From NCBI GenBank assembly GCA_003510435.1, contig DOMK01000020.1:59523-123522 (forward strand): a stretch of 64,000 bases of DNA. The letters run 5' to 3'. The first letter of the stretch is position 1; each line of letters opens with the position of its first letter. A model generated the notes under the pieces. The model did no database searches, was not told where the DNA came from, and saw only the letters and a program-made list of their open reading frames with translations. Positions 1,409-63,220 of this stretch are shown piece after piece. A program made the position numbers and the translations under genes. The stretch comes from Candidatus Magasanikiibacteriota bacterium. GTDB lineage: Bacteria; Patescibacteriota; Patescibacteriia; Magasanikbacterales; UBA922.

Positions 1409-2605
<1,197 letters not shown>

Positions 2606-6062: not shown

Positions 6063-6090
6063 ATTTTTGGCTTTCTTAAGCCAAAAATTC

Positions 6091-6119
6091 TTGACAAAAG
6101 TAATTTTTTGTGCTACTAT
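6091..6119 (+). promoter_or_regulatory. sigma70-type promoter: TTGACA, 17-bp spacer, TACTAT
   Basis: The -35 and -10 elements are near-consensus, 25 nt upstream of the ATG at 6145. Confidence 0.6.
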
Positions 6120-6144
6120 TCTCTATATTAATGACAAAATAAGT

Positions 6145-31741: not shown

Positions 31742-32155
31742 ATGAAAAAAAATATTTTTATTGCATTGATAATTATATCAATTTTAACAATCATTGGATT
31801 GGTATATTTTTTCTTTTTTCGTAATATTAAAAATAATTTGATTCAGCAAGATAAAGATAATACACAAAAAGTTTCTGATGTGGTAGATGTAAAAGAACCA
31901 GAAGTTAAACAAAATATTGTAATAAGTAATCCTCAGGGTTTGCCAGATAGTGATTTTGATGGTGTGTCTGACGAAGATGAAGCCAAATTAGGTTTGAATA
32001 ATGCTGACTATGACACTGACCATGATGGTATTAGCGACAAAGCCGAGATTGATTATGGAACTGACCCAAAGAAATTTGATACAGATGGTGATGGTTATTC
32101 TGATGCTGTAGAAATTATGGGCGGTTATAATCCGTTGGGAGAAGGGAAGTTGTAA
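31742..32155 (+). CDS. membrane-anchored small protein with three dockerin/EF-hand-like Ca-binding loops and a C-terminal GYNPLGEGKL motif
   Basis: It has an N-terminal TM helix, then 'DSDFDGVSDEDE', 'DYDTDHDGISDKAE' and 'DTDGDGYSDAVE'. Confidence 0.6.
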   Translation: MKKNIFIALIIISILTIIGLVYFFFFRNIKNNLIQQDKDNTQKVSDVVDVKEPEVKQNIVISNPQGLPDSDFDGVSDEDEAKLGLNNADYDTDHDGISDKAEIDYGTDPKKFDTDGDGYSDAVEIMGGYNPLGEGKL

Positions 32156-32358
32156 ACTAATACACCACATTAAATTGTAGTTTTGATATTGTATACGTGT
32201 TTGTAAGTCTAGATAGAAACACAGATTAAACTGATGAAACTGATTTTAACGGATTTGTGTACGCGGATAAGTATGATCAGTTTTTATCTGTTAGATCTGT
32301 TAAATCCGTGTATCTATCTAATCTATTTTAATAAAAAATAATTTATAATTTATTTAAT

Positions 32359-33273
32359 ATGTTTGATGATCAACAAAACAATCCAGTCGGAGGTGTGCCA
32401 AATAATTTACCAATTGGTGAACCTGTTCCACTAGGTCAAGGCGAGCCAGATGATATTTTTTCTGGTGTAGAAAAAGTTGTACCAGAGCCACCACAAATGG
32501 GCGGTAGTGTTATTAGTGAAACACCAGTCGTTGGAGCATCATCGGCTTTGGGGGCAGGAATATTACGTCCAAAAGTCCAACCAGTAGATTCTTTTGCTTC
32601 GGATATGAGTGGTGATTTGCCACCTGTATTATCACAACAACCATCAACTAGAATTGAACAAAATATTGTTCAGCCTAGTAATATGGGTAATTATAATTTA
32701 GATCAACAACTACCAAGTCAGATGGCACCACAGCAAGATATTTATAAAATAAAAGAACCAGCCTTGGGTAGTGGATTAGTAAAATTATTTGTCACTGTAG
32801 TAGTATTGGGAATTCTGGGTGGTGGTAGTTGGTGGATTTATAATTCTTTTATTAAAAGTGATAATGTTTCTAATGATACTGTAGTTGATAATGGAGGAGA
32901 AGCATCTGATGTTGTTGATACATTGCCGGCCGAAGGTAAGGCTGTCAAAGTAGCGGAAGATACAGTACCAAGTGATTCCAATGTAGTTGACACTGGATTG
33001 GCTGGTGATATTAAAGATGACCAAATTTTATTTGGCGAACCAATTGATAAAGATTCTGATGGTTTGGACGATGATAGAGAATTAAGTATTGGTACTGATC
33101 CGAATAATTGGGACACTGATATTGATGATCTTGGTGACGGGGATGAAGTGACAATTTGGAAGACTGATCCTTTAAATCCTGATACTGATGGTGATACTTT
33201 TTTGGATGGAGCAGAAATAAAAAATGGTTATAATCCAGCGGGCCCGGGAAAGCTTTTTGAACCACCTAAATAA
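32359..33273 (+). CDS. paralogous membrane-anchored protein with a Pro/Gln-rich region and a C-terminal D-x-D-x-D-G / GYNPAGPGKL module
   Basis: It has an internal TM helix. The C-terminus reads 'DKDSDGLDDDRE...DTDIDDLGDGDE...DTDGDTFLDGAEIKNGYNPAGPGKL'. Confidence 0.6.
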   Translation: MFDDQQNNPVGGVPNNLPIGEPVPLGQGEPDDIFSGVEKVVPEPPQMGGSVISETPVVGASSALGAGILRPKVQPVDSFASDMSGDLPPVLSQQPSTRIEQNIVQPSNMGNYNLDQQLPSQMAPQQDIYKIKEPALGSGLVKLFVTVVVLGILGGGSWWIYNSFIKSDNVSNDTVVDNGGEASDVVDTLPAEGKAVKVAEDTVPSDSNVVDTGLAGDIKDDQILFGEPIDKDSDGLDDDRELSIGTDPNNWDTDIDDLGDGDEVTIWKTDPLNPDTDGDTFLDGAEIKNGYNPAGPGKLFEPPK

Positions 33274-43056: not shown

Positions 43057-46000
43057 ATGGAGAGAAAACAAAAAAATATTTTATGGTTTTCTGAGATTGG
43101 AATTACTGATGTGCCACTCGTGGGTGGTAAGAATGCTTCACTCGGAGAAATGTATTCCAAACTAACGCAAAAGGGAATTAGAGTTCCCAATGGTTTTGCT
43201 ATTACTGCTAGTGCTTATTGGTCGTTTTTGAAATTTGCTAAGCTAGAAGACAAAATGAAAAAGGAATTAAAGGGTTTGGATATTTCTAACATGAAAGAAC
43301 TGTCTAGGGTGGGCAAGAGTATTAGAAATTATATTTTGAATTCCCATTTTCCGAAAAGTTTAGAACAAGAAATTATTGTTGAATACAAAAAATTATCTGA
43401 GCTTGCAAAAACCAAAAATATTTCTGTTGCAGTACGTTCATCAGCTACAGCCGAAGATTTACCCGATGCTAGTTTTGCTGGTCAGCAAGAAACTTATCTA
43501 AATGTAAAAGGGGAAGCGGATTTACTTTTGGCTGTAAAAAAATGTATTTCATCACTATTTACTGATCGAGCGATTTCTTATCGTGAGACCAAGGGTTTTG
43601 AACATATGGCTGTGGCTTTGTCTGTCACAGTGCAAGAAATGGTGCGGTCAGATGTTGGTGCGAGTGGAGTTATGTTTACGCTTGATACTGAGTCTGGTTT
43701 CAAAGGTGTCGTTCTGATCAACGCGGCTTATGGCTTGGGTGAATATGTCGTAAAAGGCCGAGTGACACCCGACCAATTTTATGTTTTTAAAGAAGGGGTA
43801 AAACAAGGAAAAAAGGCTATAATTAGCAAAATTTTGGGTAGTAAAGAAGTAAAATTGGTTTATGGTAAGACTGTAGGAACAAAACAGGCCAATGTAAAAC
43901 ATGTTGATAGAAATAAATTTGCCGTTACTCCAGACGAAGTTATTCAATTATCAAAATGGGGTGTGATGATTGAGGAACATTATGGCAAGTCTCAAGATAT
44001 TGAATGGGCGAAAGATGGTATTACTGGCAAATTATATATTGTTCAGGCCAGACCAGAAACAGTCAAAGCCAGGTCAAGTCACTCAGTGATTGAAAGATAC
44101 GAACTCAAGAAAAAAGGAAAATTATTATTGCGTGGTACTGCAGTTGGTCAGAAAATTGGCGCAGGCAAAGCCAGAGTAATTGAAAATCCTAAACAAATGA
44201 AATCTTTTAAAAAAGGCGAAATTTTAGTAACACGCATTACTGATCCAGACTGGGAACCAATCATGCGCATTGCTTCGGCCATTATTACTGAACAAGGTGG
44301 TAAAACAAGTCACGCCGCGATTGTGTCGCGCGAATTGGGTGTGCCGTGTATTGTTGGTGCCAGTGGAGCGAGAAAAATGTTAAAAACTGGTAAACCAATT
44401 ACTGTTAGCTGTGCCGAAGGTGATGAGGGTTTTGTCTATTCTGGAGTTTTGCCATTTGAAGTCAAGAAAACAGAAATAAAAGATGTAGCCAAAACCAAAA
44501 CTAAGATTATGATGAATGTGGGTGATCCTGACAATGCCTTTGCTTTATCATTTTTACCCAATGACGGGATTGGTCTCGCGCGAGAAGAATTTATTTTTTC
44601 AAATTTTATTCGGATTCATCCTTTGGCTTTAATAAATTATGATAAACTGAAAGATAAAAAAGCCAAAAAAATAATTGCGGACATGACTCATGGTTACAAA
44701 AAGAAATCAGATTATTGTGTAGATAAGTTGGCCGAAGGGATTGCTAGAATTGCCGTTGCATCATACAAAAATGATGTGATTGTTCGTTTGTCAGATTTCA
44801 AAACTAATGAATATGCTACACTGATTGGTGGTAAAGAATTTGAACCAAAAGAAGAAAACCCAATGATTGGTTGGCGGGGAGCGAGTCGGTATTATTCCAA
44901 AGAATATAAAGCGGGCTTTAAACTTGAATGTGAAGCTTTGAAAAAAGTGCGCAATGAATGGGGGCTAACTAATGTCATTGTCATGGTGCCGTTTTGTCGC
45001 ACACCAGAAGAAGGAGAACAAGTAATCAAAACAATGGAAGAATTTGGTCTCAAACGCGGGGAAAATGGTCTACAGGTCTATGTTATGTGTGAAATTCCAT
45101 CCAATGTTATATTGGCCGAAGAATTTGCCAAAATTTTTGATGGCTTCAGTATTGGTTCCAATGATCTTACCCAATTAACTCTAGGAGTAGATCGTGATTC
45201 AGCTTTAGTAGCTCATATTTATAATGAAAAAAATAAAGCCGTGACAACTTTGATTCGTGATGTGATTCGTGTGGCTCACAAACACAAAAGAAAAGTAGGT
45301 ATTTGTGGCCAAGCACCGAGTGACTATCCAGAATTCGCGGAAATGTTAGTGCGTGAGGGAATTGATAGTATTTCACTCAATCCTGATACAGTAATATCAA
45401 CGCGAGAACGGATTGCCTATGTAGAAAAAACTTTGGGCAAAAAAGGTAGAAAAACTAGTCTTAAATTTTTGAGTCTAGTGGCCGTGTTTGGAATTTTGGG
45501 TGCTAGTTTAATCAGTTTAGGTGCTGGTTGTACCAAGACCACGATTGAAAAAACTATGCCAACTGTCCAAAAAAATGAATTGAGTCCAGCTCAGTTGCGC
45601 TTAAAAATTTTGGAAAATCAAAAACAAGCTCTGACCCAAAGTTTAAAAATTAACACCTTTGCTAATTTTGAAATGAAATATCCCGCCACTTGGCAAGTGG
45701 AAGAATGGACTGGTGGCGTCACTCTGCGTAATTTGGCTACGGGTGAATACGTTAGCATTTTTAAACAATTGGTTTCTCCCCCAGTAAAAGAAGTGAGTTC
45801 TTCCACCACTGTGTCTGGTATTCCGGTATTGATTTATTCCGATACGCCCAGTATTACAAGTTCTATGATGTATCTAATGGCAGAAATTCCTTATCAGGAT
45901 GAAATTATTCAGTTTGATACCAATGCTCTTGGTTTGGGAATTGAAATGATGGAAACAATGAAATTTAATAAACCAGAAGTTGGTTTGCCAGATAAGACCA

Positions 46001-46149
46001 CTAGTCATTGGGATGTTCGTGAGCGCAAAGTCTGTGTCCAAATGATTACTTACGCCAGACAAAACAAAGATAGTGATTGCCAGATGTTTTCTACCCCTTG
46101 TGAAGTCCCAGATAATTGGCAAGTATGTGATCGGGGTACTATAAATTAA
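43057..46149 (+). CDS. ppsA: phosphoenolpyruvate synthase (pyruvate, water dikinase) fused in frame to a C-terminal extension of about 240 aa carrying a signal-peptide/lipobox-like hydrophobic segment
   Basis: The N-terminal 'VPLVGGKNASLGEMY' and PEP-utilising domain are present. After about 790 aa comes 'GKKGRKTSLKFLSLVAVFGILGASLISLGAGC', then an unknown domain. Confidence 0.85.
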   Translation: MERKQKNILWFSEIGITDVPLVGGKNASLGEMYSKLTQKGIRVPNGFAITASAYWSFLKFAKLEDKMKKELKGLDISNMKELSRVGKSIRNYILNSHFPKSLEQEIIVEYKKLSELAKTKNISVAVRSSATAEDLPDASFAGQQETYLNVKGEADLLLAVKKCISSLFTDRAISYRETKGFEHMAVALSVTVQEMVRSDVGASGVMFTLDTESGFKGVVLINAAYGLGEYVVKGRVTPDQFYVFKEGVKQGKKAIISKILGSKEVKLVYGKTVGTKQANVKHVDRNKFAVTPDEVIQLSKWGVMIEEHYGKSQDIEWAKDGITGKLYIVQARPETVKARSSHSVIERYELKKKGKLLLRGTAVGQKIGAGKARVIENPKQMKSFKKGEILVTRITDPDWEPIMRIASAIITEQGGKTSHAAIVSRELGVPCIVGASGARKMLKTGKPITVSCAEGDEGFVYSGVLPFEVKKTEIKDVAKTKTKIMMNVGDPDNAFALSFLPNDGIGLAREEFIFSNFIRIHPLALINYDKLKDKKAKKIIADMTHGYKKKSDYCVDKLAEGIARIAVASYKNDVIVRLSDFKTNEYATLIGGKEFEPKEENPMIGWRGASRYYSKEYKAGFKLECEALKKVRNEWGLTNVIVMVPFCRTPEEGEQVIKTMEEFGLKRGENGLQVYVMCEIPSNVILAEEFAKIFDGFSIGSNDLTQLTLGVDRDSALVAHIYNEKNKAVTTLIRDVIRVAHKHKRKVGICGQAPSDYPEFAEMLVREGIDSISLNPDTVISTRERIAYVEKTLGKKGRKTSLKFLSLVAVFGILGASLISLGAGCTKTTIEKTMPTVQKNELSPAQLRLKILENQKQALTQSLKINTFANFEMKYPATWQVEEWTGGVTLRNLATGEYVSIFKQLVSPPVKEVSSSTTVSGIPVLIYSDTPSITSSMMYLMAEIPYQDEIIQFDTNALGLGIEMMETMKFNKPEVGLPDKTTSHWDVRERKVCVQMITYARQNKDSDCQMFSTPCEVPDNWQVCDRGTIN

Positions 46150-50710: not shown

Positions 50711-50837
50711 AATAAATAGTTATAAAGTTATAATAATGTTTGCGATGCTAATATACTAATTCATACTAATAATACTAATGTCGTATATTTCGTAATTAGT
50801 ATTATTAGTACCATTCGTATATTGGTATCGTGTTTCG

Positions 50838-51237
50838 TGGAGATGCCGGGAATTGAACCCGGGTCTAGGCGGGCTACCCCTACAGTCTACATGTGTAGCT
50901 GATTTGGTATTTCACTCGTGGCTAGAAAATCAGCAAAATAACTACGAGCTGAAGCTTGGATTACTTTCGGAAAAAAATCTCAAGCGAAATTTTTGACCTA
51001 CACTCAATAATTTACACCGCCTAACCCCTATTGAGTATCAGAGGGGCGATGGTAGAAGCACTTAAGCGACTACAGAAGCAAATGTAGGAACACTAAAGGC
51101 AGAAGCCAAAGCATTCTTTACTTTGCTAACAAAGTTTGCATTTATAATTTGTACTTTGGTATTTACGAGGAAAAAGTACAACCTCGACATGCTTGTAAAA
51201 GATAACATGGGTCCACCCATCGAACCCTGTCATCCCC
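50838..51237 (-). ncRNA. ssrA: tmRNA (ssrA)
   Basis: On the minus strand the 5' end reads GGGGAUGACAGGGUUCGAUGGG. The 3' end has the T-arm GGGUUCAAUUCCCGG plus CAUCUCCA pairing with the 5' GGGGAUG. An internal 'CCUCGUAAAU' is followed by a tag ORF ...ALASAFSVPTFASVVA then UAA. It is adjacent to smpB. Confidence 0.8.
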
Positions 51238-51894: not shown

Positions 51895-52329
51895 ATGTTT
51901 TGGCAAAAAAATAACAAAATTAATTTGGTTTTTGTGGTTTTTGGTATAGTTGCTTTGGGGATAATTTTAGCGACCGCGATTTTACTTATAAAATTATCTA
52001 TTAAAATTAAACAAGTTGACTTGAACAAACCAACTAATATGGTAGGTGTAGAAGATGTTTATCAAAGAGTTTTCCAAATCAAGGCAAACTACCAAAAGGG
52101 GATAGAGGATTTGTTGATTAGTACAACATCCACGACTGATAATAATACGATTTATGAAAATGTAGATAAAGTATTTTTTGCGATTAGAGTTCCTCAAGAG
52201 TTGCGCGAAATACACCTAAATACTCTAATGAATATTTATAAAATAAAAGAAACAAAATTGTCTGATTTAGAAAAAAGAGAAAAAGTTATGGATGAATTAA
52301 ATAAATTGCTTGTAGAAATTAAAAAATAA
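51895..52329 (+). CDS. hypothetical membrane-anchored protein
   Basis: It has an N-terminal TM helix and no motifs. Confidence 0.45.
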   Translation: MFWQKNNKINLVFVVFGIVALGIILATAILLIKLSIKIKQVDLNKPTNMVGVEDVYQRVFQIKANYQKGIEDLLISTTSTTDNNTIYENVDKVFFAIRVPQELREIHLNTLMNIYKIKETKLSDLEKREKVMDELNKLLVEIKK

Positions 52330-52331
52330 TT

Positions 52332-53102
52332 ATGCTTTGGAAACAGTATTTAATTAGTTTTTTTGTCGGGTTGATCACCATACCGAGTTTGATTTTGCTG
52401 ATATTTTTTCCTATCCCATGGATATTTTTTTCTACCATAATAGTTTGGATTGGTTTGTCTAGTTTTTTCTATTGGTATCTATATCATACAAAAGAAAATT
52501 TTTTTCTTGATTTTATTTTGCTGATTGCTACCCAGTTGAGTGTGATTGGTTTGATTTTACTAATTGAATGGCCGATTTTAAATTGGTTTTTGATTATTTT
52601 TTGTACGGGATTCATGGCATTGTTTTTTATAAAGTCTCAACTTCAAGAAAATCAGCTCTCTCACGAACAAAAACCAGTACGCAGAATGAAGATGATGCTC
52701 TGGATATTTAATATGTATGCTTTTTTTACTTTGATTTTTGCTTTTGATTTATTTTTTCCTAATTTACCTTTTTGGTTATGGATGTCATTGGCCGGAATTT
52801 TATCAGCTTTTGTGTCGGTTATGATTTGGAGAATGTATTTTGTGATTGAGTATAAAAAAATATTATTATGGGCACTGCTTATGGCCCTTTTAGTTTTGGA
52901 AATGGTGTGGGTCATTAATCTTTTGCCTATGGGGTATTTGATTTTGGGCGCCATGATTACTTGGTTATGGTTTTTATTTCAATTATTTGTCCGTTTTCAT
53001 CTTGCTCCTCAGGGTATAGATTGGAAAAGACAGACTTGGTTTTTATTGAGTAATGTAATTCTATTTTTTATATTTTTATTTTATATTGTTCGTTGGATAT
53101 GA
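52332..53102 (+). CDS. hypothetical polytopic membrane protein
   Basis: It has about 8 hydrophobic helices and no recognisable family. Confidence 0.45.
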   Translation: MLWKQYLISFFVGLITIPSLILLIFFPIPWIFFSTIIVWIGLSSFFYWYLYHTKENFFLDFILLIATQLSVIGLILLIEWPILNWFLIIFCTGFMALFFIKSQLQENQLSHEQKPVRRMKMMLWIFNMYAFFTLIFAFDLFFPNLPFWLWMSLAGILSAFVSVMIWRMYFVIEYKKILLWALLMALLVLEMVWVINLLPMGYLILGAMITWLWFLFQLFVRFHLAPQGIDWKRQTWFLLSNVILFFIFLFYIVRWI

Positions 53103-54187
53103 CCCCAAAAGCTCCTCACCTCCCAAACAAGACCTGTCGCGTAGATACTTATTATCGTTTACAAAATGTTAAGTGGTTGTTGTTGTTTGCTGGTTTAGCT
53201 TTTGTGGCGGGTGTAAGTGCCACCATGATTGTTAACGCCTGGGTTTTGCCACATTATGAATCAATTCAATTTGTCCAGAGTAATGACTTGGACGGAAAAA
53301 GATTAAATAACAATACACCCGATTTACTCGTAAAAAGCCAAGCCGAACAGAGACTAATGAATGTTTATGATAAAAAGAAAAAAGTTGAAGGCCAATATTA
53401 TAATAAAAATTCTTTTGTAGCTCAGTCTGCTGTCGTGAGTTCTGATGGTTGGTGTGTATTGTTTTCTTCAAATTATTTTTTGGGTCAAGAAAAAAATTGG
53501 GAAATAATTGACTATGTGGGTAATAGTTATGTGATAGAAAAAACTGTTTATGACAAAACAAATAAATTATTATTTTTAAAAATTCAAGCCAATGGTTTGC
53601 GAGTTATGTCGTTTGCCAATTGGCAAAATTTTGGTCTAAATACCAATGTTTGGTCAATTGATTTTGGTAATGAATGGAAAAATAATTTAGTGGCAGATTT
53701 TGTACCATTGGCCGATCCAGTAGTTGGCTATTATGCGGACAGACAATATAATTTTGGTTTATTGAATTTAACCACTCCTGGCAGTGTTTTGCTAGATGGC
53801 AATGGCCAGTTATTAGCTTTTGTAAATGTGGGTGGTCAAAATTTACTACCAAGCTGGTTAGTGGAGAGGGGAATTAATTCTATTTTGGAAACTGGCAAAT
53901 TGCAATATTTGGACGTGGGTTGGCAAGGATCCCTAGTTTATGGAGTTTTTGGTAATAATAATTCGCAACCTGAGACTGGTTTGTATATAAATATTTTGGG
54001 TGAGAAGTCAGTTGACTCAGCCGTGCAAATTGGTGATGTGGTTTTGGAAATAGAGAATCAACCAATTGATAAATTTACCTTGGCCGAGCAAATCTGGTTT
54101 GCGCCAAAAGAATTTAAAATAACTATTTGGCGAGATGGTGTTAGACAAGAAGTGTTTGCAAAAAAACATTATATTTTAGCCAAATAA
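53093..54187 (+). CDS. hypothetical membrane-anchored protein with a C-terminal PDZ-like segment
   Basis: It has an N-terminal TM helix. 'GDVVLEIENQPIDKFTLAEQIW...ITIWRDGVRQEVF' resembles a PDZ domain. No protease triad is recognisable. Confidence 0.4.
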   Translation: MDMTPKAPHLPNKTCRVDTYYRLQNVKWLLLFAGLAFVAGVSATMIVNAWVLPHYESIQFVQSNDLDGKRLNNNTPDLLVKSQAEQRLMNVYDKKKKVEGQYYNKNSFVAQSAVVSSDGWCVLFSSNYFLGQEKNWEIIDYVGNSYVIEKTVYDKTNKLLFLKIQANGLRVMSFANWQNFGLNTNVWSIDFGNEWKNNLVADFVPLADPVVGYYADRQYNFGLLNLTTPGSVLLDGNGQLLAFVNVGGQNLLPSWLVERGINSILETGKLQYLDVGWQGSLVYGVFGNNNSQPETGLYINILGEKSVDSAVQIGDVVLEIENQPIDKFTLAEQIWFAPKEFKITIWRDGVRQEVFAKKHYILAK

Positions 54188-54229
54188 TCTGTATATTTTG
54201 CAAAATTGACCTAGTTTTCCTTTTTACCT

Positions 54230-54258
54230 TGACAAAACTGCCATTTTATAGTATAATT
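54230..54258 (+). promoter_or_regulatory. promoter TTGACA, 17 bp, TATAAT
   Basis: The hexamers are consensus, upstream of the 54400 gene. Confidence 0.5.
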
Positions 54259-54399: not shown

Positions 54400-55008
54400 A
54401 TGTTTGAAGAAAAAAGAATGTTTCATATTATACAAAAAAATTGGAAATTGATTGGTTTAATCGGTATTATTTTTGCTGGTTTAACAATCCTGATTAGTTT
54501 TTTATTTCATCTACAATATCGCGCTGATGCCCAGGTAATGATTATATCAAAATCACGTTATGGAGTAGATCCATATACCGTGGTAAAATCTGCCGAGCAA
54601 GTTGGTGGAAATTTGGTCCAAGTGGTAAAAAGTAATGATTTTTACAACAAGGTTATTGCTCAGCCTGGATTTAATTTGGACAAAACAATATTTGATAAAT
54701 TATCTGAACAAGACAAGCGAAAATTGTGGCAGAAAAATATTATTGTGTCTGTGGTTTATGGTACTGGGGTTTTGAATGTTAGTGCTTATCATGAAAACAA
54801 GGATCAAGCCAAAGAATATGCTGGCGCTGTGGCCAACACCTTGGTCTCCCAAGCTTGGCAATATGTGGGCGGAGATATTACTCTCAAAGTTATCAATGAT
54901 CCAGTTGTGACTTCTTGGCCAGTCAGGCCAAACCTAGTTGTTAACGCTCTAGTGGCTTTTATTTTTGGCATTTTATTATCAACTATTATTTTTGTTAAAC
55001 GTGGATAA
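54400..55008 (+). CDS. Wzz/polysaccharide co-polymerase-like protein (two TM helices flanking an extracytoplasmic domain)
   Basis: The TM-loop-TM topology and size fit chain-length-determinant proteins. Sequence similarity is only weak. Confidence 0.4.
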   Translation: MFEEKRMFHIIQKNWKLIGLIGIIFAGLTILISFLFHLQYRADAQVMIISKSRYGVDPYTVVKSAEQVGGNLVQVVKSNDFYNKVIAQPGFNLDKTIFDKLSEQDKRKLWQKNIIVSVVYGTGVLNVSAYHENKDQAKEYAGAVANTLVSQAWQYVGGDITLKVINDPVVTSWPVRPNLVVNALVAFIFGILLSTIIFVKRG

Positions 55009-55026: not shown

Positions 55027-55227
55027 ATGACCAAAACTTCTGTCAAAAAAAATGATAGTAGTGAGGAGGAGAACTTGAAAAAAGAAATTGCTAAATATCG
55101 TAAGTATCATCGTGAACTAGATGAAATAGAAAAGAAAATAAAAGACCTGCGTGTTCGCTTGCAGTCTGTTTTGGATAAACAAAATGTAAAAAATACTTTG
55201 GAAAAAATTATTAGTCATAAAGATTAA
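55027..55227 (+). CDS. small coiled-coil hypothetical protein
   Basis: It is charged and heptad-like, and lies immediately upstream of the giant gene. Confidence 0.4.
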   Translation: MTKTSVKKNDSSEEENLKKEIAKYRKYHRELDEIEKKIKDLRVRLQSVLDKQNVKNTLEKIISHKD

Positions 55228-55230
55228 TTT

Positions 55231-58200
55231 ATGTCTGAAGAAGACAAAAAACGTGGTAAAGTTAGAAGAGATGGTAAGGTAATAGATGTTAAACCAACTC
55301 CGGGTGGTGATTTTGAATTATCTGCAGATAGAGAATCTGAGCTGCGAGTTGAATTGGAAAAATTGAAAAATGATCTGAAAGATAGAATCCCTGATATTGA
55401 CAGTGAAATATTAAAATTGCATGGTTCGTTAAATAGAGTAAAAACAGAAAAAAGTTTGGACTTATTTACTCAATTTAGTACTGCATTAAATGTATTAAGA
55501 CAGGAATTACGAAAGTTAGAACAAGAAATTTATGCAAATGAAATGATTGCAACTTATGAAAAAGATATTATTGCTTTGGATAAGAAATTAAAAAAACTAG
55601 CTAAACAAGTTGGCGTTAGTGCTTCTGAACTCATACTCAAATTAGCCAATACTAGTATTTCAGAACTAAAAAATGCTTTATTTCAAGTCGGTGATAAACC
55701 CGATGATCCTGATGTTGCAGGCCAGTTTGATGCCCTGCTTAGAAAAGCCAAAGAGTCAGTAAATGAAGCTATAAAGAAACAAAAGGAAAAAGGTGAATGG
55801 AAAGTAAATACTGATGAAGAAGTGAAAGCTATTTGGGAACAAGCTGAAACTAGAGATGCAAAGCAGGTTATAGCTTTGATCGGAGAAACTCAACAAACTT
55901 TGGAGAGAAATAAAAAAGACGGCGAAGGCAGACTAAATGGTGCAGAAAAAATTTCTGATATACAAGAAACCGTCATGACTCATGACGGTGATTTGGTTTA
56001 TCTACCAGAAAAAGGTCATGCCATTATTGTGGGTGACACCCATGGAGATGAAAGTTCTATTCAATCAATCTTAGTGGAAACAGATTTTATTGCGCGCGTA
56101 GAAAGACATGAACCAGTGTATTTAGTCTTTACTGGGGACTATGTTGATCGCGGGCCAAAGCAATTGGAAAATATTCAAGCGTTAATGGAATTGTATAATG
56201 AATATCCTGAGAATGTAATTTTGTTAAGAGGGAATCATGAACATGCTGGCTCACCTCAAATGCAAGATCCGGATTTATTTAATATAAAGGCCATGGATGC
56301 CTATGGCACTTTTGCAACAGAAATTAGAGATAAATACAACGAATTTTATGATAATTTGCCAATTAATTTAGTGACAAAGAAAGGCTTGTTGATCACCCAC
56401 GGCGGGATAGCAGAAGATCCTGAAGTAAAAAGAGCCGGAGATTTGACGAGATTAAGTAATGACCAGAAAATGCAAATGATGTGGACAGATCCAACAGAAA
56501 TTTCTGATGATTTTGTTTACATTCCCAAAAATAAAGATGGTGAGACAAAAAGTAGAGGTAGTTATGGTCAAGGCGATGATGAGAAAAAAGTTAAAAAATT
56601 TGGTAAAGGTGTTTTTGAAAAATCTTTACAAGCTGTTGGTGCCAAGGCTATGATGCGTTCACATCAGGCTGACGATAGTTTTAAAGATAATGGTTTTAAA
56701 AGACAATTTGGTGACAAATTAGTGACAGTATTTTCTACTACATCTGGACAGCGTGGTTACAAACCAGCCTATATGGAGGTAGATTTGAGTGCAGAATTAA
56801 CAGATTTTTCTACAGCTGATACGGCAGTGAACGGTCCAGTGCAACTAAGAAATGTTGGTGATACTAGACCACATTTGTTAAAAGATGAAGATTTGATAGA
56901 GTTGGAAGAAAGTGATGGAGTTTTGGGTGAAGATGACGAACCTCCAATAGTTAATACTCCACCAACTGAAGATGATCCAAAAAAATGGTGGAGATGGTTG
57001 TCTTTACATTATCATGTGGCTAAAACAAATAGTCATGAATTAAATTCAGCCATAAATACTTGTGGTGATAAAAATTTGGCTGGATTGAAAAGAATTTACG
57101 AAATAATTTTGGCTTGTGGAGACGATTTTGCCGAAGCTGGCAGACAAGCTTTGGAGTTTGCGCACAGCCTGCCTAAACCAGGTGTAGGTGAGAGTGGTGC
57201 AGATTCTTCTGATCATTTATCAGAGGATGACCAAAGTAAGTGGCAAGAAATAAAAGCTGTAAGTGGAGATGTAAAAATTGTAGATTGTTTACGCTTGTTT
57301 TCTAGTATAGAAAAAACTTATAAATTATTTACTTTATTTAAAAAAGATGGAAAAAGATTTTCTGATTTTGTGATCCAATGGGATAATCTTCCAGATCGTT
57401 CAGATATTAGTTTGGTAGTTGAAATGCTAGACAGTCATACAAAAAATCCTAAACTTTATTATGATGATCCTGATTCTAGATTAGAGATAGATGTTAGTAA
57501 TTTACAAGAGATGTTTGGTTCAATGGTTTTGTTTACTGAGTTTGCCCCGAGTGATTTGGACAGTCGGAAGAGATTTTGTGAAGAAATACCAAAAAAAGTA
57601 AATGATCTATATGAAAAAATATTTAGTCAGGCAGTAATTGATATACACGAAGTTGATTATGGTGTTCATGCTGTATCCGATCCAGCAGGAAATCTTAGAG
57701 TAAAAAATCAAGTCTTGCAAGAATTGAGTGCTGACATACTAAAAATTGATATAATTACTATTACATTTTTACATCAATTTCTTCTTCAGATGAATGAAAA
57801 GATTGGAAAAAATATTCAAGATGAGGGTGTTTATTATATGGAGGCAAACAAAAGAATTGAAGAGATTTTTAAAGATAAACGAGCAGATTTAGAGAAACTG
57901 AGGAAAAAAGTTGGAGGTGAGGAAGATGAAGCTGAAGCAAGATTGACAAAGCGAAAAGCTGAACTAGCCACGGCTTTGGGGGTGAGTTTCCCTAATCCAG
58001 CTGAAGTAAAACTTTTAGAAGATTTTCCTGATGATCGGGTTGATATTTTGGCACTGTTTTCTAAGGCTCTGGAAAGAGATTATACACAAATAAGAGCCTG
58101 GACAGAATTAAAAAATCATGAAAAGGTGAAAGATTTTTTTGCCTTAGGACAACTTATAGAAATCACTAAGGTTTGTGATGTTACCGCTGGTACAGCCCAT

Positions 58201-61200
58201 GCAAAAAAAGGCGCAGAATTTGCCAAAGTTTTTTTGAAAAGTTTTAAATCAGCGCAGAGTGCCTATGATGTTTTTATTTCTTTGAAAAAAAATGGAAATA
58301 GATTTATTGCCTTGGATTCACGTTGGCGTCATACTGATATTAGCAAAGAATCGCCAGATGATTGTGTAAAGACTATCGCTGATCTGAGTGAAGAATATCC
58401 TGGAGTGATGTCTAATTTGGAATTGATAAAGAAATTGCCTAGCAAAAAAAATCCAAAAGATTATATAGCCGAGATGATGGCTAGTATTGAAGCTAGATCA
58501 GTGGCATTTGTTGGTGATATAAAATCCAAGGTAGAAACAGAAGCTGACACTAATGCAAAGAGACGGTTGATTCATGATGCCTTGTCTAGATTTGAACGAG
58601 AAGGTTCTGACCTCATCTTGTTCATTACCAATTTGTCTGGACAGGTTAGAGAATTAATGGCTACGGCTGGAAGTGATGCTGGTAAGATAGAAGAGATTGA
58701 ACAATTGTCCACTGCTTTTTCAGATGAACAGAGGTTAAAATACCAGGCTAGAAAAAAAGAATTAGAACAAATGCTGGAGGATGTAAAAACTGAAGAAAAA
58801 ATTATTAGAGACTTTGGTACGGTGGAAGAATATAAGCGTTGGTCTGCTCTGCCGTTTGCTCATGGCAATTTTGATGATGCATTATTATTAAGAACCTGGA
58901 CCGGTGGAGATGCTGATGTGGCACAGGATTGGCAAGACAGATTTGGCGCAAAACTTGGTAATGACAGGCTTTTGTTTAGTGAAGCGCGTACTCTAGTCGG
59001 AAATGATATGACTGTTTTGGAACAATTGGTTGATGCTGTACCGGGAATAGAGAGTATGGCGCGGGTACCAGCTTTTGATGCTCTAAAAGCAGCTAAAGAA
59101 ACAAAAGATAGAGTAGCTTCAGCCGAAGTTTTACCCGGTCCAGAATTAGGAAAAAAATTAATAGAATATTTTAAGACACTTGCAGATGGCAGATTTTGTA
59201 ATTTTGGTTATAAAGAATTTGATGATGGCAATTTAACTGAATTGAAACAGCGGGTGGATTTTGTAGTTCAAAAAGTAGGGGTAATACCAGTAGACATAAT
59301 TTCTAAATTTGGTTTTGTGTGCAAAAAGTATCCTACTATTGTTGCAGATAGTGACAAGACTATTTTTCAAATCAGTATTCAAATAGATAATTGGAAAGAA
59401 GAATTTTTGAGGGTGTTAACTGTATATGAACAAGAAAATGAATATAAAGAAAAAAGAGAAGGGTTGGAAAATTTATGTATGAATATTTCCGAATATTCTG
59501 GTGGTCTTCACGTGTTAGGTGTTAAGGATGACGATGGCTATGTTGCTAGATTTAAATTACCTCTGGTTGAATTAGAGAGGAGAGCTAAACTTGTTAATGA
59601 TTTGTATCGTGCCAGCAGTTATAGTGGTTTTGTTCGTTTTACTAGTGATGATAGTAAACCAATTTGTCGTGATTGGATTCAGTTAAATATTGAGAGAAAT
59701 GACCTGGAGACAGAATTTTTGCGTTTGTTAAAAATTCAGGAACAAAGAGAACCGTTGAAAAGAGTTTGTGGAGATCATAGAATGGGAACACGAGGCGCTG
59801 GTGATTCACTTGGTCTGGATGATGATTTTGTACCAACTAAAAATCCAGATGAACAGGTAGCTGACTTTGGGCCTAAATTAGAAAAAATCCAGGCATATTT
59901 AAACGAAGCAAGAAGTGATCATATTGAAATAAGAATTTCTCGGGAATCAAAGGTGGTTGAAACTTTTGATCCAAAAGATGATTGGAGTGTTACTGTTATA
60001 AATCTAAATCTAGAAGATCCTAACTGGGAAAGGCAATTTTTTGCCTTGACTGGAATTGACCCAAAGATCAAAGAGAGTAAAGAAATTAAAAAACAAGAAT
60101 TAAAAATAAAGTATAGAGAAGATTATAGAAATGATAAACCAATATCACCGCCCACTACTGATCTAGAAAAAGAAGCCATGATAGAATTTTTATCTGCGCC
60201 AGATGTTGATGTTAGTGTAGTAATTAATCAGTCAATTCAAGACTGTAGGCAAATTCCAAATGAATTTTTTGATAGAACAAAAAAATGGTTTGAGTTTGGT
60301 AATGAAGAATATAGAAATATTCTGGTAAGTGCTGTTAGATATTGTTTATCCCCTGCAGAAGATGGTCATACAAAGCCAGAAAATTTTCTTTCGCCAACAG
60401 CATATCAGGATTTTTTTGTTAGTTTGAGTAAACTGTTGGGTGTGCCAGTAACGGGTGAATTTGAACTCAAGAATGATGATGGTTGGCGTGATCTAGATTA
60501 TTTGCTTCAACATCATGTTGATTGGAGCGAAAATAATGCTAAGACAAAATTGCTTTCTGTTTATGATGCACAGGGGTTTTTTAAAACAAGCAAAAAAGAA
60601 AGAAAGCAATTGTTAGATGGTTTACATAGTCGTCATGAGTCTTTGATTGCTACAGCGAAAAAAATAGATAGTACCAAATTTTTATATATCAGATTGAGAA
60701 AGATAGTAGATAATTTTACTTCTCACACTACTGGCAATCTCGATCTAAATGTTAATAAACTTGCAAAAGAAGAGTATAGCTTGAATTATGATTTGAGAGA
60801 TTTTTTTAATAAAAAATTACCTAAGGCTGGTAATACTGACGGACTTACTTTTTTGTTAACTAGCGGATGGAAAGGTTTTCAAGATAGGGCTGATGGAATA
60901 TCAATGGGTTTGGAAACAACACTTGCTTTCATGATTGAGGCAATGGAAGATAATGGTTTTTTGCCTCGCACTGGCAAACCTTATAAAAAAGAAGATTATA
61001 ATCCAGAATTATTATTGTTATATGAAAAATATCAAGAACTAAAAACTACTGGCAAAGTAGAAGATTTGGGTATGGCAGAAGCCGGCGCTGGTGGAGCATT
61101 AGAAGTTTTGGGTGGTGGTGATTCTGTTGACGACGCAGTTGGAGACGGAAGTGGAGCTAGAGAACCTGGACCAGATACACCCCGAGCTTCAGAATTTCAT

Positions 61201-63171
61201 GCAGTTCAAGGAGAGGGTTTGGAACAATTGTTCTCCCAATATGATTTTTCTATTTTAAAAGAAGTGATGACTGCTGACGCACAGAGAGGTAATGCTAAGA
61301 TGTATTTGTGGAGAAATAAAGGAAGTTTAGAACAGATGGTTCCTGGTGTACGCAATGCTTACAGAATTGGTGCCAAATTTAAACAGGCTTTTTTGTTTGC
61401 TAGACAATACGTAGAAAATCCTGACATTGATAGGGATTTTAATATTGTTATGCAAGAAGAGTTTGTTTTGGCCGGTGAAGTAAAAAGCATTATAGATAAT
61501 TTTGCTAATCATGTTAAGGACGAACCAAATGCGAAAAATTTAGTTGAAACTTTATTACCCCAGTTATATAAAAAGGCAAATAACATAATGGAAAAATTTA
61601 AAGTTTTAGCTCAAGAGATGGAAACTCTAATGGCGCAAGTAAATCTTACTGTGCCAGAAAATTTTCGAGTGGCTTCGGGAGATGGTATAGTGCCACCAGC
61701 AGATGGTAGTGATACTAGTGGTGATGATTTGCTAGGAGAAAATAAAAAAGCTAAAGGTGGCTTTAAGTGGTTCAAACGTATTGCTATTCCTTTAGGTCTT
61801 TTAGCTTCTGCATTTATGATAGACAAAGGAATTTCTACTGACAAAGAACCAGCTGAACCAGAAGGTACCCATCTAACTTCTACTGATTCTGATGAAAATA
61901 GTCAAGATATAATAGAGAGAGAAAAAAGAGCTGATGAATATAGAAATGCTGGCTTGTCGTCTGATGGTGAACCAACTAAGACAGAAGTACGAAAATATTC
62001 AGATTCAGATAAAATAAAAATAAAAGGATTTGAAAATTTGAAAGTAGTAAAAATTGAAAGTGGTCATTTTGAAGAAGATGGCTTGCCAGATGGTCAAAAA
62101 AATTATGTTGAGTTTGTAGATGGGGCTTATTTTAATGGCTCTATGGAACACGGACAATTTGTTTTTGGTACTTTTCGGGATTCTGGCCCAGAAGGTAAAT
62201 CACGTGAGTATTTTGGTGGTTTCAAAGATGGATTTTTTCATGGAAAAGCGAAAATAATTAATGAAGAAACAAAAGAAATAGAATATACTAGTTTTGATCA
62301 TGGTGTGAGAATGAAAGATTATGAGGATGAAAAAGAACAAAAAAGAGATAAAAATCCTGAATTATCAAAATATCAAACGCGAGAATATTCTGATTCAGAT
62401 GAAATAAAAATAAAAAGATTTGAAAATTGGAAAGTGACAAAAATTACTGGTACTTTTGACAAAGATGGTTTACCTCATGGCAGACCTACTAGGGTTGATT
62501 TTGAAGGTGGAGGTCAATTTTATGGTGAAATGGATCATGGTCAAATTGTCGGTGGTGGTGAACTCTGGTATCCTACTAATTCAGAAGGCAAAACAATTAG
62601 GTACTTGGGTGGTTTTACAGATGGACTACCACATGGAAAGGCAACTATTATTTATGAAGAAACACACACATCAGAATTGAGCCACTACACTCATGGTGTA
62701 AGAGATAAAGTTTATAAAAGTGAAGCTGAACAAGACGCTGATGATACTGATTATGACAATGAAAAAAAAGAAGATGGTGTGTTTAGAGCTGTGAAGACAT
62801 ACAAAGAATCTGTGCCAGTTTTTAAAGGTTTGCCAAAACATTTCCCCAAAGAAATATCTGGTTCATTTGATAAAGAAAATTTGCCTCATGGTCAGATTAA
62901 AATTATTTTTGAAAATGGTGATAGTTTTGATGGCATGGCAGAACATGGTAATTTAAAAAATGGCGAATGGAAATGGGCTGATGATACTGTATACAATGGT
63001 CCATTCAATAAAAATAACAAACCACATGGAGAAGGAAAATTAACTTTACCTCCCAATGGAATAGTAAAAGATGTGGTATTTGATAATGGTATTGTGATAA
63101 AGATTGGTGGCGTGGAAAAAAAACCAGTAAAAGAAAAAAAACCTAAACCAGGTAAAAAATGGACAAGATAG
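55231..63171 (+). CDS. giant (2646 aa) protein: N-terminal coiled coil, PPP-family calcineurin-like metallophosphatase domain, long alpha-helical region, predicted TM helix and three C-terminal MORN-like repeat modules
   Basis: Phosphatase motifs 'GDTHGD', 'GDYVDRG', 'RGNHE', 'THGG' and 'WTDP' are present. A TM helix reads 'IAIPLGLLASAFMI'. MORN-like units such as 'YFNGSMEHGQFVFG' and 'FDGMAEHGNLKNGEWKW' are tandemly triplicated. Confidence 0.85.
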   Translation: MSEEDKKRGKVRRDGKVIDVKPTPGGDFELSADRESELRVELEKLKNDLKDRIPDIDSEILKLHGSLNRVKTEKSLDLFTQFSTALNVLRQELRKLEQEIYANEMIATYEKDIIALDKKLKKLAKQVGVSASELILKLANTSISELKNALFQVGDKPDDPDVAGQFDALLRKAKESVNEAIKKQKEKGEWKVNTDEEVKAIWEQAETRDAKQVIALIGETQQTLERNKKDGEGRLNGAEKISDIQETVMTHDGDLVYLPEKGHAIIVGDTHGDESSIQSILVETDFIARVERHEPVYLVFTGDYVDRGPKQLENIQALMELYNEYPENVILLRGNHEHAGSPQMQDPDLFNIKAMDAYGTFATEIRDKYNEFYDNLPINLVTKKGLLITHGGIAEDPEVKRAGDLTRLSNDQKMQMMWTDPTEISDDFVYIPKNKDGETKSRGSYGQGDDEKKVKKFGKGVFEKSLQAVGAKAMMRSHQADDSFKDNGFKRQFGDKLVTVFSTTSGQRGYKPAYMEVDLSAELTDFSTADTAVNGPVQLRNVGDTRPHLLKDEDLIELEESDGVLGEDDEPPIVNTPPTEDDPKKWWRWLSLHYHVAKTNSHELNSAINTCGDKNLAGLKRIYEIILACGDDFAEAGRQALEFAHSLPKPGVGESGADSSDHLSEDDQSKWQEIKAVSGDVKIVDCLRLFSSIEKTYKLFTLFKKDGKRFSDFVIQWDNLPDRSDISLVVEMLDSHTKNPKLYYDDPDSRLEIDVSNLQEMFGSMVLFTEFAPSDLDSRKRFCEEIPKKVNDLYEKIFSQAVIDIHEVDYGVHAVSDPAGNLRVKNQVLQELSADILKIDIITITFLHQFLLQMNEKIGKNIQDEGVYYMEANKRIEEIFKDKRADLEKLRKKVGGEEDEAEARLTKRKAELATALGVSFPNPAEVKLLEDFPDDRVDILALFSKALERDYTQIRAWTELKNHEKVKDFFALGQLIEITKVCDVTAGTAHAKKGAEFAKVFLKSFKSAQSAYDVFISLKKNGNRFIALDSRWRHTDISKESPDDCVKTIADLSEEYPGVMSNLELIKKLPSKKNPKDYIAEMMASIEARSVAFVGDIKSKVETEADTNAKRRLIHDALSRFEREGSDLILFITNLSGQVRELMATAGSDAGKIEEIEQLSTAFSDEQRLKYQARKKELEQMLEDVKTEEKIIRDFGTVEEYKRWSALPFAHGNFDDALLLRTWTGGDADVAQDWQDRFGAKLGNDRLLFSEARTLVGNDMTVLEQLVDAVPGIESMARVPAFDALKAAKETKDRVASAEVLPGPELGKKLIEYFKTLADGRFCNFGYKEFDDGNLTELKQRVDFVVQKVGVIPVDIISKFGFVCKKYPTIVADSDKTIFQISIQIDNWKEEFLRVLTVYEQENEYKEKREGLENLCMNISEYSGGLHVLGVKDDDGYVARFKLPLVELERRAKLVNDLYRASSYSGFVRFTSDDSKPICRDWIQLNIERNDLETEFLRLLKIQEQREPLKRVCGDHRMGTRGAGDSLGLDDDFVPTKNPDEQVADFGPKLEKIQAYLNEARSDHIEIRISRESKVVETFDPKDDWSVTVINLNLEDPNWERQFFALTGIDPKIKESKEIKKQELKIKYREDYRNDKPISPPTTDLEKEAMIEFLSAPDVDVSVVINQSIQDCRQIPNEFFDRTKKWFEFGNEEYRNILVSAVRYCLSPAEDGHTKPENFLSPTAYQDFFVSLSKLLGVPVTGEFELKNDDGWRDLDYLLQHHVDWSENNAKTKLLSVYDAQGFFKTSKKERKQLLDGLHSRHESLIATAKKIDSTKFLYIRLRKIVDNFTSHTTGNLDLNVNKLAKEEYSLNYDLRDFFNKKLPKAGNTDGLTFLLTSGWKGFQDRADGISMGLETTLAFMIEAMEDNGFLPRTGKPYKKEDYNPELLLLYEKYQELKTTGKVEDLGMAEAGAGGALEVLGGGDSVDDAVGDGSGAREPGPDTPRASEFHAVQGEGLEQLFSQYDFSILKEVMTADAQRGNAKMYLWRNKGSLEQMVPGVRNAYRIGAKFKQAFLFARQYVENPDIDRDFNIVMQEEFVLAGEVKSIIDNFANHVKDEPNAKNLVETLLPQLYKKANNIMEKFKVLAQEMETLMAQVNLTVPENFRVASGDGIVPPADGSDTSGDDLLGENKKAKGGFKWFKRIAIPLGLLASAFMIDKGISTDKEPAEPEGTHLTSTDSDENSQDIIEREKRADEYRNAGLSSDGEPTKTEVRKYSDSDKIKIKGFENLKVVKIESGHFEEDGLPDGQKNYVEFVDGAYFNGSMEHGQFVFGTFRDSGPEGKSREYFGGFKDGFFHGKAKIINEETKEIEYTSFDHGVRMKDYEDEKEQKRDKNPELSKYQTREYSDSDEIKIKRFENWKVTKITGTFDKDGLPHGRPTRVDFEGGGQFYGEMDHGQIVGGGELWYPTNSEGKTIRYLGGFTDGLPHGKATIIYEETHTSELSHYTHGVRDKVYKSEAEQDADDTDYDNEKKEDGVFRAVKTYKESVPVFKGLPKHFPKEISGSFDKENLPHGQIKIIFENGDSFDGMAEHGNLKNGEWKWADDTVYNGPFNKNNKPHGEGKLTLPPNGIVKDVVFDNGIVIKIGGVEKKPVKEKKPKPGKKWTR

Positions 63172-63187
63172 AATATAATTAAATCTT

Positions 63188-63220
63188 AAAAAATGGCTTA
63201 TCTAAGCCATTTTTTGTTTG
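63188..63220 (+). terminator. terminator after the giant gene (aatggctta tc taagccatt plus T-run)
   Basis: A 9-bp stem is followed by ttttttg. Confidence 0.65.

Follow-up and report, generated by a model that had tools for sequence, protein, structure and literature searches.

A 64,000-nt stretch of the genome of a Candidatus Magasanikiibacteriota bacterium (contig DOMK01000020.1, positions 59,523 to 123,522 of the forward strand; here the window) contains an intact open reading frame (ORF) for a giant protein of 2,646 aa at 55231..63171 on the + strand. The ATG start, strand and length agree with a preliminary description made from the sequence alone, and the product is recorded at NCBI as HBU07577.1, 'hypothetical protein DEB09_05890 [Candidatus Magasanikbacteria bacterium]'. 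The protein combines a complete PPP-family phosphatase domain, a long middle region without detectable relatives and three C-terminal MORN-fold modules. We tentatively propose that it is a cytoplasmic, envelope-associated scaffold phosphatase. Protein dephosphorylation is proposed because the two-metal PPP active site is complete, and an envelope-side location because the gene is apparently co-transcribed with genes for a Wzz-like protein and a small protein, p66, with three more membrane-protein genes adjacent.

The phosphatase domain of EukaryoticPPP-like type and an N-terminal helical lead-in occupy residues 190-545 (55798..56865, +), as delimited by Pfam, a PDB search, alignment and a structural model, and the complete PPP domain spans residues ~255-545. 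The catalytic motifs of the calcineurin-like core that the preliminary description called complete sit where it had placed them, GDTHGD at 268-273, GDYVDRG at 302-308, GNHE at 334-337, HGG at 390-392 and WTDP at 418-421, and are followed by RSHQ at 476-479. Pfam Metallophos (PF00149 superfamily) matched residues 265-479 with E 8.6e-18, and PHROG 246 (NinI-like Ser/Thr phosphatase) matched with E 1.7e-14. A PDB sequence search with the phosphatase returned BSU1 first (5.9e-17), then PP1 and PP5, in alignments that pair GDTHG, GDYVDRG, RGNHE, HGG, WTDP and RSHQ with their counterparts. All six metal ligands are present (D269, H271, D303, N335, H390 and H478), and the catalytic His is H336; H390 in HGG and H478 in RSHQ, which match BSU1 and PP1, occupy the ligand position of PP1 His173 and the position of PP1 His248, respectively. 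In an alignment of 67 sequences the columns of D269, H271, D303, N335, H336, H390 and D420 were invariant, and those of R307 and H478 were conserved in at least 90%. D420, within MMWTDP, is the equivalent of PP1 Asp208 (W229/D231 of alignment A4). Loss of metal ligands in a proper alignment, the outcome that would have told against a phosphatase, was not seen, as all six are kept.

An AlphaFold2 model of residues 190-560 had a predicted local distance difference test score (pLDDT) of 85.7 and a predicted template-modelling score of 0.88. The best Foldseek matches of this model in the PDB were PP5, PP1 and PP2A (E 4e-19 to 1e-17; target-normalised template-modelling score at most 0.82), and both model and matches show the alpha/beta sandwich fold of PPPs. 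Pfam annotation and AlphaFold modelling, which had been suggested as a check on the core, therefore returned intact ligands in a PPP fold. Among the clamp arginines, R307 is clear and the second is probably R442, the candidate equivalent of PP1 Arg221. MAFFT aligned R442-G443 with the archaeal RG (59/67 sequences), whereas pairwise alignments with BSU1 and with the syntenic orthologue P0001 (see below) placed it differently. The loop around R442 had a pLDDT of ~65-70 and is flanked by two lineage-specific insertions (433-441 and 445-452), with another at ~341-368. Because these two insertions flank R442 and the pairwise alignments shift its placement, we regard the assignment as probable only.

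Beyond P0001 and a second giant protein, P0002, the nearest sequence relatives of the domain are archaeal PPPs of 260-300 aa with ~30% identity, from Nitrososphaerota, Thermofilaceae, Korarchaeota and Asgard lineages. This makes an old lateral transfer of the PPP domain out of archaea plausible. In archaea, EukaryoticPPP-Like enzymes include PP1-arch from Sulfolobus and from Methanosarcina. Kerk et al. 2021 (PMC8249667) separate this type from bacterial PPPs by the Asp208 equivalent, the Domain-3 loop and the Arg221 equivalent. Since the nearest relatives are archaeal, and D420, the Domain-3 loop and probably R442 fit these criteria, the domain would be placed among the EukaryoticPPP-Like enzymes, a type seldom seen in bacteria. 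The authors count 59 EukaryoticPPP-Like sequences in bacterial UniProt, and their main text names Deltaproteobacteria (27/59) and Firmicutes (7), with Patescibacteria and Parcubacteria unmentioned there. In the terms of that source (PMC8249667), the domain shares with EukaryoticPPP-Like PPPs of Archaea and a few Bacteria the six motifs, the Asp of WxDP and the Domain-3 loop, probably including its RG. It differs from the stand-alone members (~270 aa) in being embedded in 2,646 aa, in carrying extra insertions and in its host, a bacterium of the Candidate Phyla Radiation (CPR). With the bacterial PPPs PrpA/PrpB, lambda phosphatase/NinI and PrpE/ApaH it has in common the metallophosphoesterase fold and the first four motifs, but it reaches only 18-24 bits against the NCBIfam models of PrpA/B, PrpE and ApaH, whose cut-offs are 176-340, and it has the eukaryotic-type Domain-3 Asp and loop rather than the bacterial-type second Arg.

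The preliminary description considered the architecture unusual in bacteria, and the searches agree: among 5.8 billion proteins searched with the full-length sequence, only P0001 and P0002 shared more than a generic PPP domain. P0001 (2,405 aa), a syntenic orthologue from another sample, is colinear with the giant protein to ~residue 2131. Identity between the two is 52% over residues 190-560 by direct alignment (46% over 142-568 by BLAST) and at most 28%, or undetectable, outside the phosphatase. This pattern suggests that the phosphatase region, the best-conserved part of the protein, is under purifying selection. A scan of genome contigs with the family-specific alignment returned only small archaeal PPPs, and a scan of metagenome contigs gave one weak small PPP locus, L010, with no giant ORF in it. 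The combination of PPP domain, orphan middle and MORN modules was seen only in this lineage and is extremely rare.

P0002 is a metagenomic protein of 3,883 aa (L011, 1805-13456). It has VWA_2, AAA_22 and AAA_5 (dynein/MoxR-like) domains, its PPP domain is of the same sub-type and sits at the C-terminus, and the genes on either side of it encode a serine recombinase and an S24 peptidase-like protein. It is 27% identical to the giant protein over residues 239-502, and a similar lead-in precedes its PPP domain, which likewise lies inside a giant protein. In contrast to the protein described here, its PPP domain is C-terminal, it has additional ATPase and VWA domains, and its context is mobile-element-like. 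Around the same PPP sub-type, P0002 forms a second giant architecture, unrelated to the first and possibly carried on a mobile element.

The C-terminus of the giant protein consists of three modules, which bears out the triplicated MORN-like tail reported earlier. Module 1 (residues 2250-2379; 61978..62367, +) was defined from the repeats, a model and Foldseek; module 2 (residues 2380-2514; 62368..62772, +) is 52% identical to module 1 (E 8e-38); and module 3 (residues 2515-2646; 62773..63168, +) is 29% identical to module 2 (E 6e-9), contains the best Pfam MORN unit, YNGPFNKNNKPHGEGKLTL, and closes with a basic tail rich in Lys and Pro (residues 2628-2646). The repeat period in the DNA is 390-393 nt. 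Pfam MORN (PF02493) scored 14.8 bits with the full-length protein, 23.0 bits against a cut-off of 22.5 with the isolated C-terminal 446 aa, and 11.7-17.4 bits with single modules. Module 1 was modelled from an alignment whose 3 rows are the repeats of this protein; the model had a pLDDT of 81.8 and nine strands in hairpins, forming the elongated beta-hairpin array of MORN proteins. Its best Foldseek matches were MORN families, with E only ~1e-2, and the matched solved proteins were all intracellular and eukaryotic. Because the model consists of nine strands in hairpins, the label 'MORN-like' appears justified at the level of the fold. The modules resemble MORN1, RSP1/RSP10, MORN4, junctophilin and the SETD7 N-terminus in their beta-hairpin arrays and [YF]xGx[FMW]...HGxG units. 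Compared with these proteins they are very divergent, with HGQ or HGK in place of several GxG, and are organised as three super-repeats of ~130 aa, each of about four hairpins, with charged linkers between.

A word-based search of the 5.8 billion proteins with the C-terminal 446 aa found no relative, nor did two pattern scans of viral contigs, one of which used a MORN module. We know of no MORN-PPP fusion; none turned up in related literature, in which no search was aimed at such fusions. P0001 has no MORN modules, and the triplicated array therefore appears to be a lineage-specific addition. The array had also been described as membrane-binding, which was an assumption: Sajko et al. (PMC7725318) report that TbMORN1 bound neither membrane nor vesicles, and treat MORN repeats as modules for protein-protein interaction and dimerisation.

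The N-terminal region (residues 1-189; 55231..55797, +) is charged and helical, with weak coiled-coil-type Pfam matches only. A crude heptad test gave a signal at residues 71-129, in support of the N-terminal coiled coil proposed earlier; the first ~140 residues are unconserved in P0001. The orphan middle (residues 546-2175; 56866..61755, +) had no relative in Pfam, PDB or sequence searches. An exhaustive HMMER search with residues 580-1779 against 1.84 billion representative proteins returned only a fragment of the giant protein itself, PDB sequence searches with residues 561-1400 and 1401-2200 found no relatives, and a relaxed Pfam scan of the region gave noise and no family. The preliminary description called more than 1,500 residues here helical; hydrophobic-moment and Chou-Fasman profiles did not discriminate between alpha and beta structure, and the helical character is putative. 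Outside the N-terminal portion, the sole part with detectable conservation in P0001 is residues 1986-2131 (61186..61623, +; 28% identity), and a heptad-like segment is found at 2103-2143.

A chunked self-comparison revealed weak internal duplications in the middle region, of 687-717 with 1002-1032 and of 1332-1398, 1437-1502 and 1557-1610 with one another. Residues 1332-1610 (59224-60060) thus contain three weakly alike units of ~65-70 aa that end in I-x-L-N-[IL]-E-x-x-[ND]-[WFL]-E-x-x-F, with faint counterparts in P0001 at ~1523-1539 and 1624-1677. These may represent an undescribed small repeat domain.

The giant gene is part of a conserved cluster in which most genes encode membrane proteins. 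Directly upstream and co-oriented with it are the genes for a Wzz/CpsC-like polysaccharide co-polymerase protein (54400..55008, +; 202 aa, two transmembrane helices) and for p66 (55027..55227, +), a charged, coiled-coil-like protein of 66 aa whose stop lies 3 nt before the ATG of the giant ORF. A putative promoter with a perfect sigma-70 consensus, TTGACA-17 nt-TATAAT (54229..54257, +), falls within the 212 nt that separate the Wzz-like gene from the gene before it, and a hairpin that begins 16 nt after the giant stop codon (63187..63216, +) resembles, with its T-run, a terminator; both are consensus-type matches only. Because the predicted promoter, the 3-nt gap between p66 and the giant gene and the terminator-like hairpin all fit, the three genes appear to form one transcription unit. 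Preceding them are three conserved membrane-protein genes (51895..54187, +) that are syntenic with locus L004, p144 (one transmembrane helix), p256 (polytopic) and p364 (one transmembrane helix). At the P0001 locus the order is the same, SmpB(-), p143, p256, p358, Wzz-like, p65 and giant gene, followed by trmD. Identities between the two loci are 69% for SmpB, 31% for p144/p143, 42% for p256, 44% for p364/p358, 56% for the Wzz-like protein and 38% for p66/p65. As to p364 itself (53093-54187, +), an N-terminal transmembrane helix is combined with a sub-threshold C-terminal PDZ match (E 0.09), and a PDB sequence search found no relative. The protein might belong to the envelope as a degenerate member of the HtrA-like or PDZ kind. 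Apart from this PDZ match, relaxed Pfam scans of the operon proteins gave only noise.

From these features we infer the enzymatic activity, substrate class, location and partners of the giant protein as follows. The PPP phosphatase, its sole recognisable catalytic part, would most likely dephosphorylate Ser/Thr, and possibly Tyr, residues of proteins. The N-terminal coiled coil may serve in oligomerisation or partner binding, the ~1,600 fast-evolving residues may be a spacer or platform, and the three MORN-fold modules with the basic tail may act as protein-binding, at most membrane-proximal, adaptors. With no signal peptide (the N-terminus is hydrophilic) and no convincing transmembrane helix, the protein is probably cytoplasmic. 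The phosphatase would then probably be held at the cytoplasmic face of an envelope complex, with the Wzz-like protein and p66 among its members, and would act on phosphorylated components there. The preliminary description was largely right about the anatomy, apart from a transmembrane helix discussed below and, perhaps, the helical nature that it gave the middle region, and its functional suggestions are weakly supported. Of its phrase 'signalling or host-interaction effector', the first half is the most reasonable general reading, while the second is without positive support.

Several observations weigh against this proposal. The assignment of R442 as second clamp arginine depends on the alignment and falls in a lower-confidence loop between insertions. 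The MORN modules, being absent from the sole orthologue, are inessential to the core function of the family. A short hydrophobic segment near them is flanked by charges in the asymmetric pattern of an N-in/C-out anchor, P0001 likewise has mildly hydrophobic C-terminal segments, and our comparison of transmembrane propensity used a crude hydrophobicity scale, not a trained predictor. No ORF in the 64-kb window matched a protein kinase family, and the genes called over the next 10 kb downstream carry no record of one, so that the look at neighbouring genes which had been suggested for this purpose yielded no phospho-signalling partner. The Wzz-like protein also lacks the type of cytoplasmic tail by which bacterial tyrosine (BY) kinases are activated, and the polysaccharide genes downstream (acyltransferase, Wzy_C and glycosyltransferase) are not conserved beside P0001.

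The hydrophobic segment, IAIPLGLLASAFMI (residues 2184-2197; 61780..61821, +), is preceded by Lys/Arg and followed by acidic residues, and had been taken earlier as a transmembrane helix. If it were one, the giant protein would be a single-pass membrane protein whose 2,180-residue phosphatase part is cytoplasmic and whose MORN modules lie outside, where they could bind cell wall, S-layer or a host surface. In favour of this arrangement, KKAKGGFKWFKR before the segment and the acidic linker after it fit the positive-inside rule for an N-in/C-out anchor, P0001 is mildly hydrophobic near its C-terminus, and the upstream operon partners are all membrane proteins. CPR bacteria are, moreover, thought to live attached to hosts. 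However, the hydrophobic core is only 14 residues long and includes a Pro and a Gly, and its best 19-residue window (2184-2202) reaches a Kyte-Doolittle maximum of 1.48, below the usual cut of 1.6. The summed biological-hydrophobicity score of this window is +7.5, whereas the real transmembrane helices of neighbouring proteins (p144, p256, p364, the Wzz-like protein and signal peptidase) fall between -4.1 and +0.2; the most hydrophobic window of soluble pyruvate kinase from the same genome reaches +7.3. Nowhere in the giant protein is the hydrophobicity of these helices attained. A membrane span is not supported, because the segment scores no better than this soluble enzyme and unlike real transmembrane helices. 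That the solved MORN proteins matched by the module-1 model are all intracellular also argues against external modules, and we consider a single-pass topology unlikely.

It is similarly doubtful that the domain acts not on proteins but on nucleotides, on polyphosphate or on phosphates that are linked to sugars or lipids in the synthesis of envelope polysaccharides. ApaH, PrpE and Pnkp belong to the calcineurin-like superfamily, and weak NCBIfam matches of the giant protein to them (E 1e-5 to 7e-4, far below the cut-offs) are consistent with such a substrate, as are the Wzz-like neighbour, the nearby acyltransferase, Wzy_C and glycosyltransferase genes and the lack of a kinase nearby. Against it, the PPP-specific motifs GDxHG, GDxVDRG, GNHE, HGG, WxDP and probably the RG loop are all present, sequence and fold matches are led by BSU1, PP1, PP5 and PP2A, not by nucleotidases, and the polysaccharide genes do not accompany P0001.

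The gene context also resembles the Gram-positive capsule modules (CpsC/CapA, CpsD/CapB and CpsB/CapC), in that a Wzz gene of the CpsC family (TIGR01006-like) lies directly upstream of a phosphatase gene with which it is likely co-transcribed; this is a resemblance only. Here there is no BY-kinase, and the phosphatase is a PPP rather than a PHP or low-molecular-weight protein tyrosine phosphatase. The Wzz-like protein scores 42 bits against a cut-off of 296 for the CpsC family and does not have the cytoplasmic activating tail. A BY-kinase/capsule module was ruled out, as the cluster contains no kinase; neither a kinase family nor a P-loop protein was found in it, and the five upstream proteins were all unmatched in this respect.

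We regard it as quite improbable that the giant protein is a secreted or translocated effector whose PPP domain rewrites host phospho-signalling and whose MORN modules target it within the host. PPP-fold effectors do exist, for example Legionella WipA. Most of the giant protein evolves very fast and is without relatives, and the lineage-specific gain of MORN modules resembles effector modularity. Its PPP type is, moreover, rare in bacteria (PMC8249667), with nearest relatives in archaea. However, it carries no signal peptide or recognisable secretion signal, and no secretion-system genes are adjacent. The chromosomal neighbourhood of the gene, next to smpB and the transfer-messenger RNA (tmRNA) gene, is a conserved cluster that a diverged relative shares and not a variable island, and the composition of the gene is that of the flanking DNA. 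It matched no PADLOC family and had no viral relatives.

A separate candidate, a phage or defence-island origin, was rejected. No PHROG or PADLOC match was found beyond the generic PPP, with PADLOC returning nothing for either the giant protein or P0001, and the flanks are housekeeping genes.

The giant ORF is a genuine chromosomal gene. The identical 2,646-aa product was found on 5 contigs, from JGI, ENA (SPAdes) and Logan assemblies and the NCBI metagenome-assembled genome, three of these copies being JGI 3300009031, ENA SPAdes ERZ5996431 and Logan SRR6487867. An assembly chimera, which the preliminary description had named as the case that would undo its finding, is very unlikely because these assemblies are independent. 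G+C content (GC) across the ORF is 0.32-0.37 and GC skew is even, both like the rest of the window. A frame of 7.9 kb that stays open in DNA of 35% GC excludes a chance origin, and an alternative genetic code was ruled out, since the frame is open under table 11. The absence of the MORN-bearing C-terminus from the sole orthologue could point to an artefact, either a chimera or separate genes fused by error, but such an error is hardly credible given the identical copies, the even composition, the length of the open frame and the colinearity of P0001 from the PPP domain to ~residue 2131.

A more far-reaching version of the proposed envelope-associated scaffold phosphatase is that the Wzz-like protein, p66 and the giant PPP, possibly joined by the three membrane proteins encoded upstream, make up an undescribed envelope-spanning complex for phospho-signalling or host contact in CPR bacteria of the Magasanikbacteria type. 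In such a complex a laterally acquired archaeal-type phosphatase would be positioned by a 1,600-residue orphan scaffold and, in this species, coupled by the MORN modules to a surface or host-derived partner. We offer this as speculation and think it distinctly unlikely as a whole.

The window is ordinary bacterial chromosome. It contains tmRNA, SmpB, IF3, tRNAs, pyruvate kinase and a phosphoenolpyruvate-utilising enzyme, as well as FtsA, FtsZ, HisRS, UvrD, Tgt, NDK and signal peptidase. GC skew is +0.11 to +0.31 in nearly every 2-kb bin and nearly all large genes are on the + strand; the sole dip, at 50-52 kb, coincides with minus-strand genes. A similar strand disparity is reportedly the subject of one Microgenomates genome paper. 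The tag peptide predicted for the tmRNA (50835-51237, -), ANFVSKVKNALASAFSVPTFASVVA, is unusually long, at 25 residues. A protein of 1,030 aa with PPDK_N and PEP-utilizers domains (43057-46149, +), named phosphoenolpyruvate synthase by NCBI, has a C-terminal extension of ~240 aa past its Pfam domains, and the other members of its 90% cluster are 980-994 aa long. It includes a transmembrane-like segment, FLSLVAVFGILGASLISLG, at residues 804-822 with a score of -0.3. An ORF of 624 aa (6052-7926, +) without a Pfam match overlaps the UvrD-like helicase gene at its end.

A second giant ORF, of 5,275 aa (15908-31735, +), begins with a PF18895 'T4SS_pilin' domain and transmembrane helices, followed by Laminin_G_3, DUF4082, TIG, Big_5 and BNR-like domains. 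It is preceded by an ORF of 742 aa (13676-15904, +) with the same PF18895 N-terminal domain and followed by two TSP3-repeat proteins (31742-33273, +). Together these look like a giant cell-surface or adhesin locus of a kind typical of CPR bacteria. With the organism name at NCBI, the PF18895 domain indicates that the genome is of CPR origin.

A large part of bacterial diversity belongs to the CPR, whose signalling and host-interaction biology is almost unknown. The domain types described here were already known; what sets the protein apart is the architecture, the CPR host and the orphan scaffold of ~1,600 residues, and no long-standing question is thereby answered. The finding would put an archaeal/eukaryotic-type PPP in a CPR genome; the survey discussed above (PMC8249667) names two taxa in its main text, and neither is CPR. 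It also ties a giant orphan protein to a conserved envelope gene cluster. With a catalytic core that is kept, a scaffold that evolves fast and repeats that were added in one lineage, it would provide a testable example of how giant orphan proteins are built in reduced genomes.

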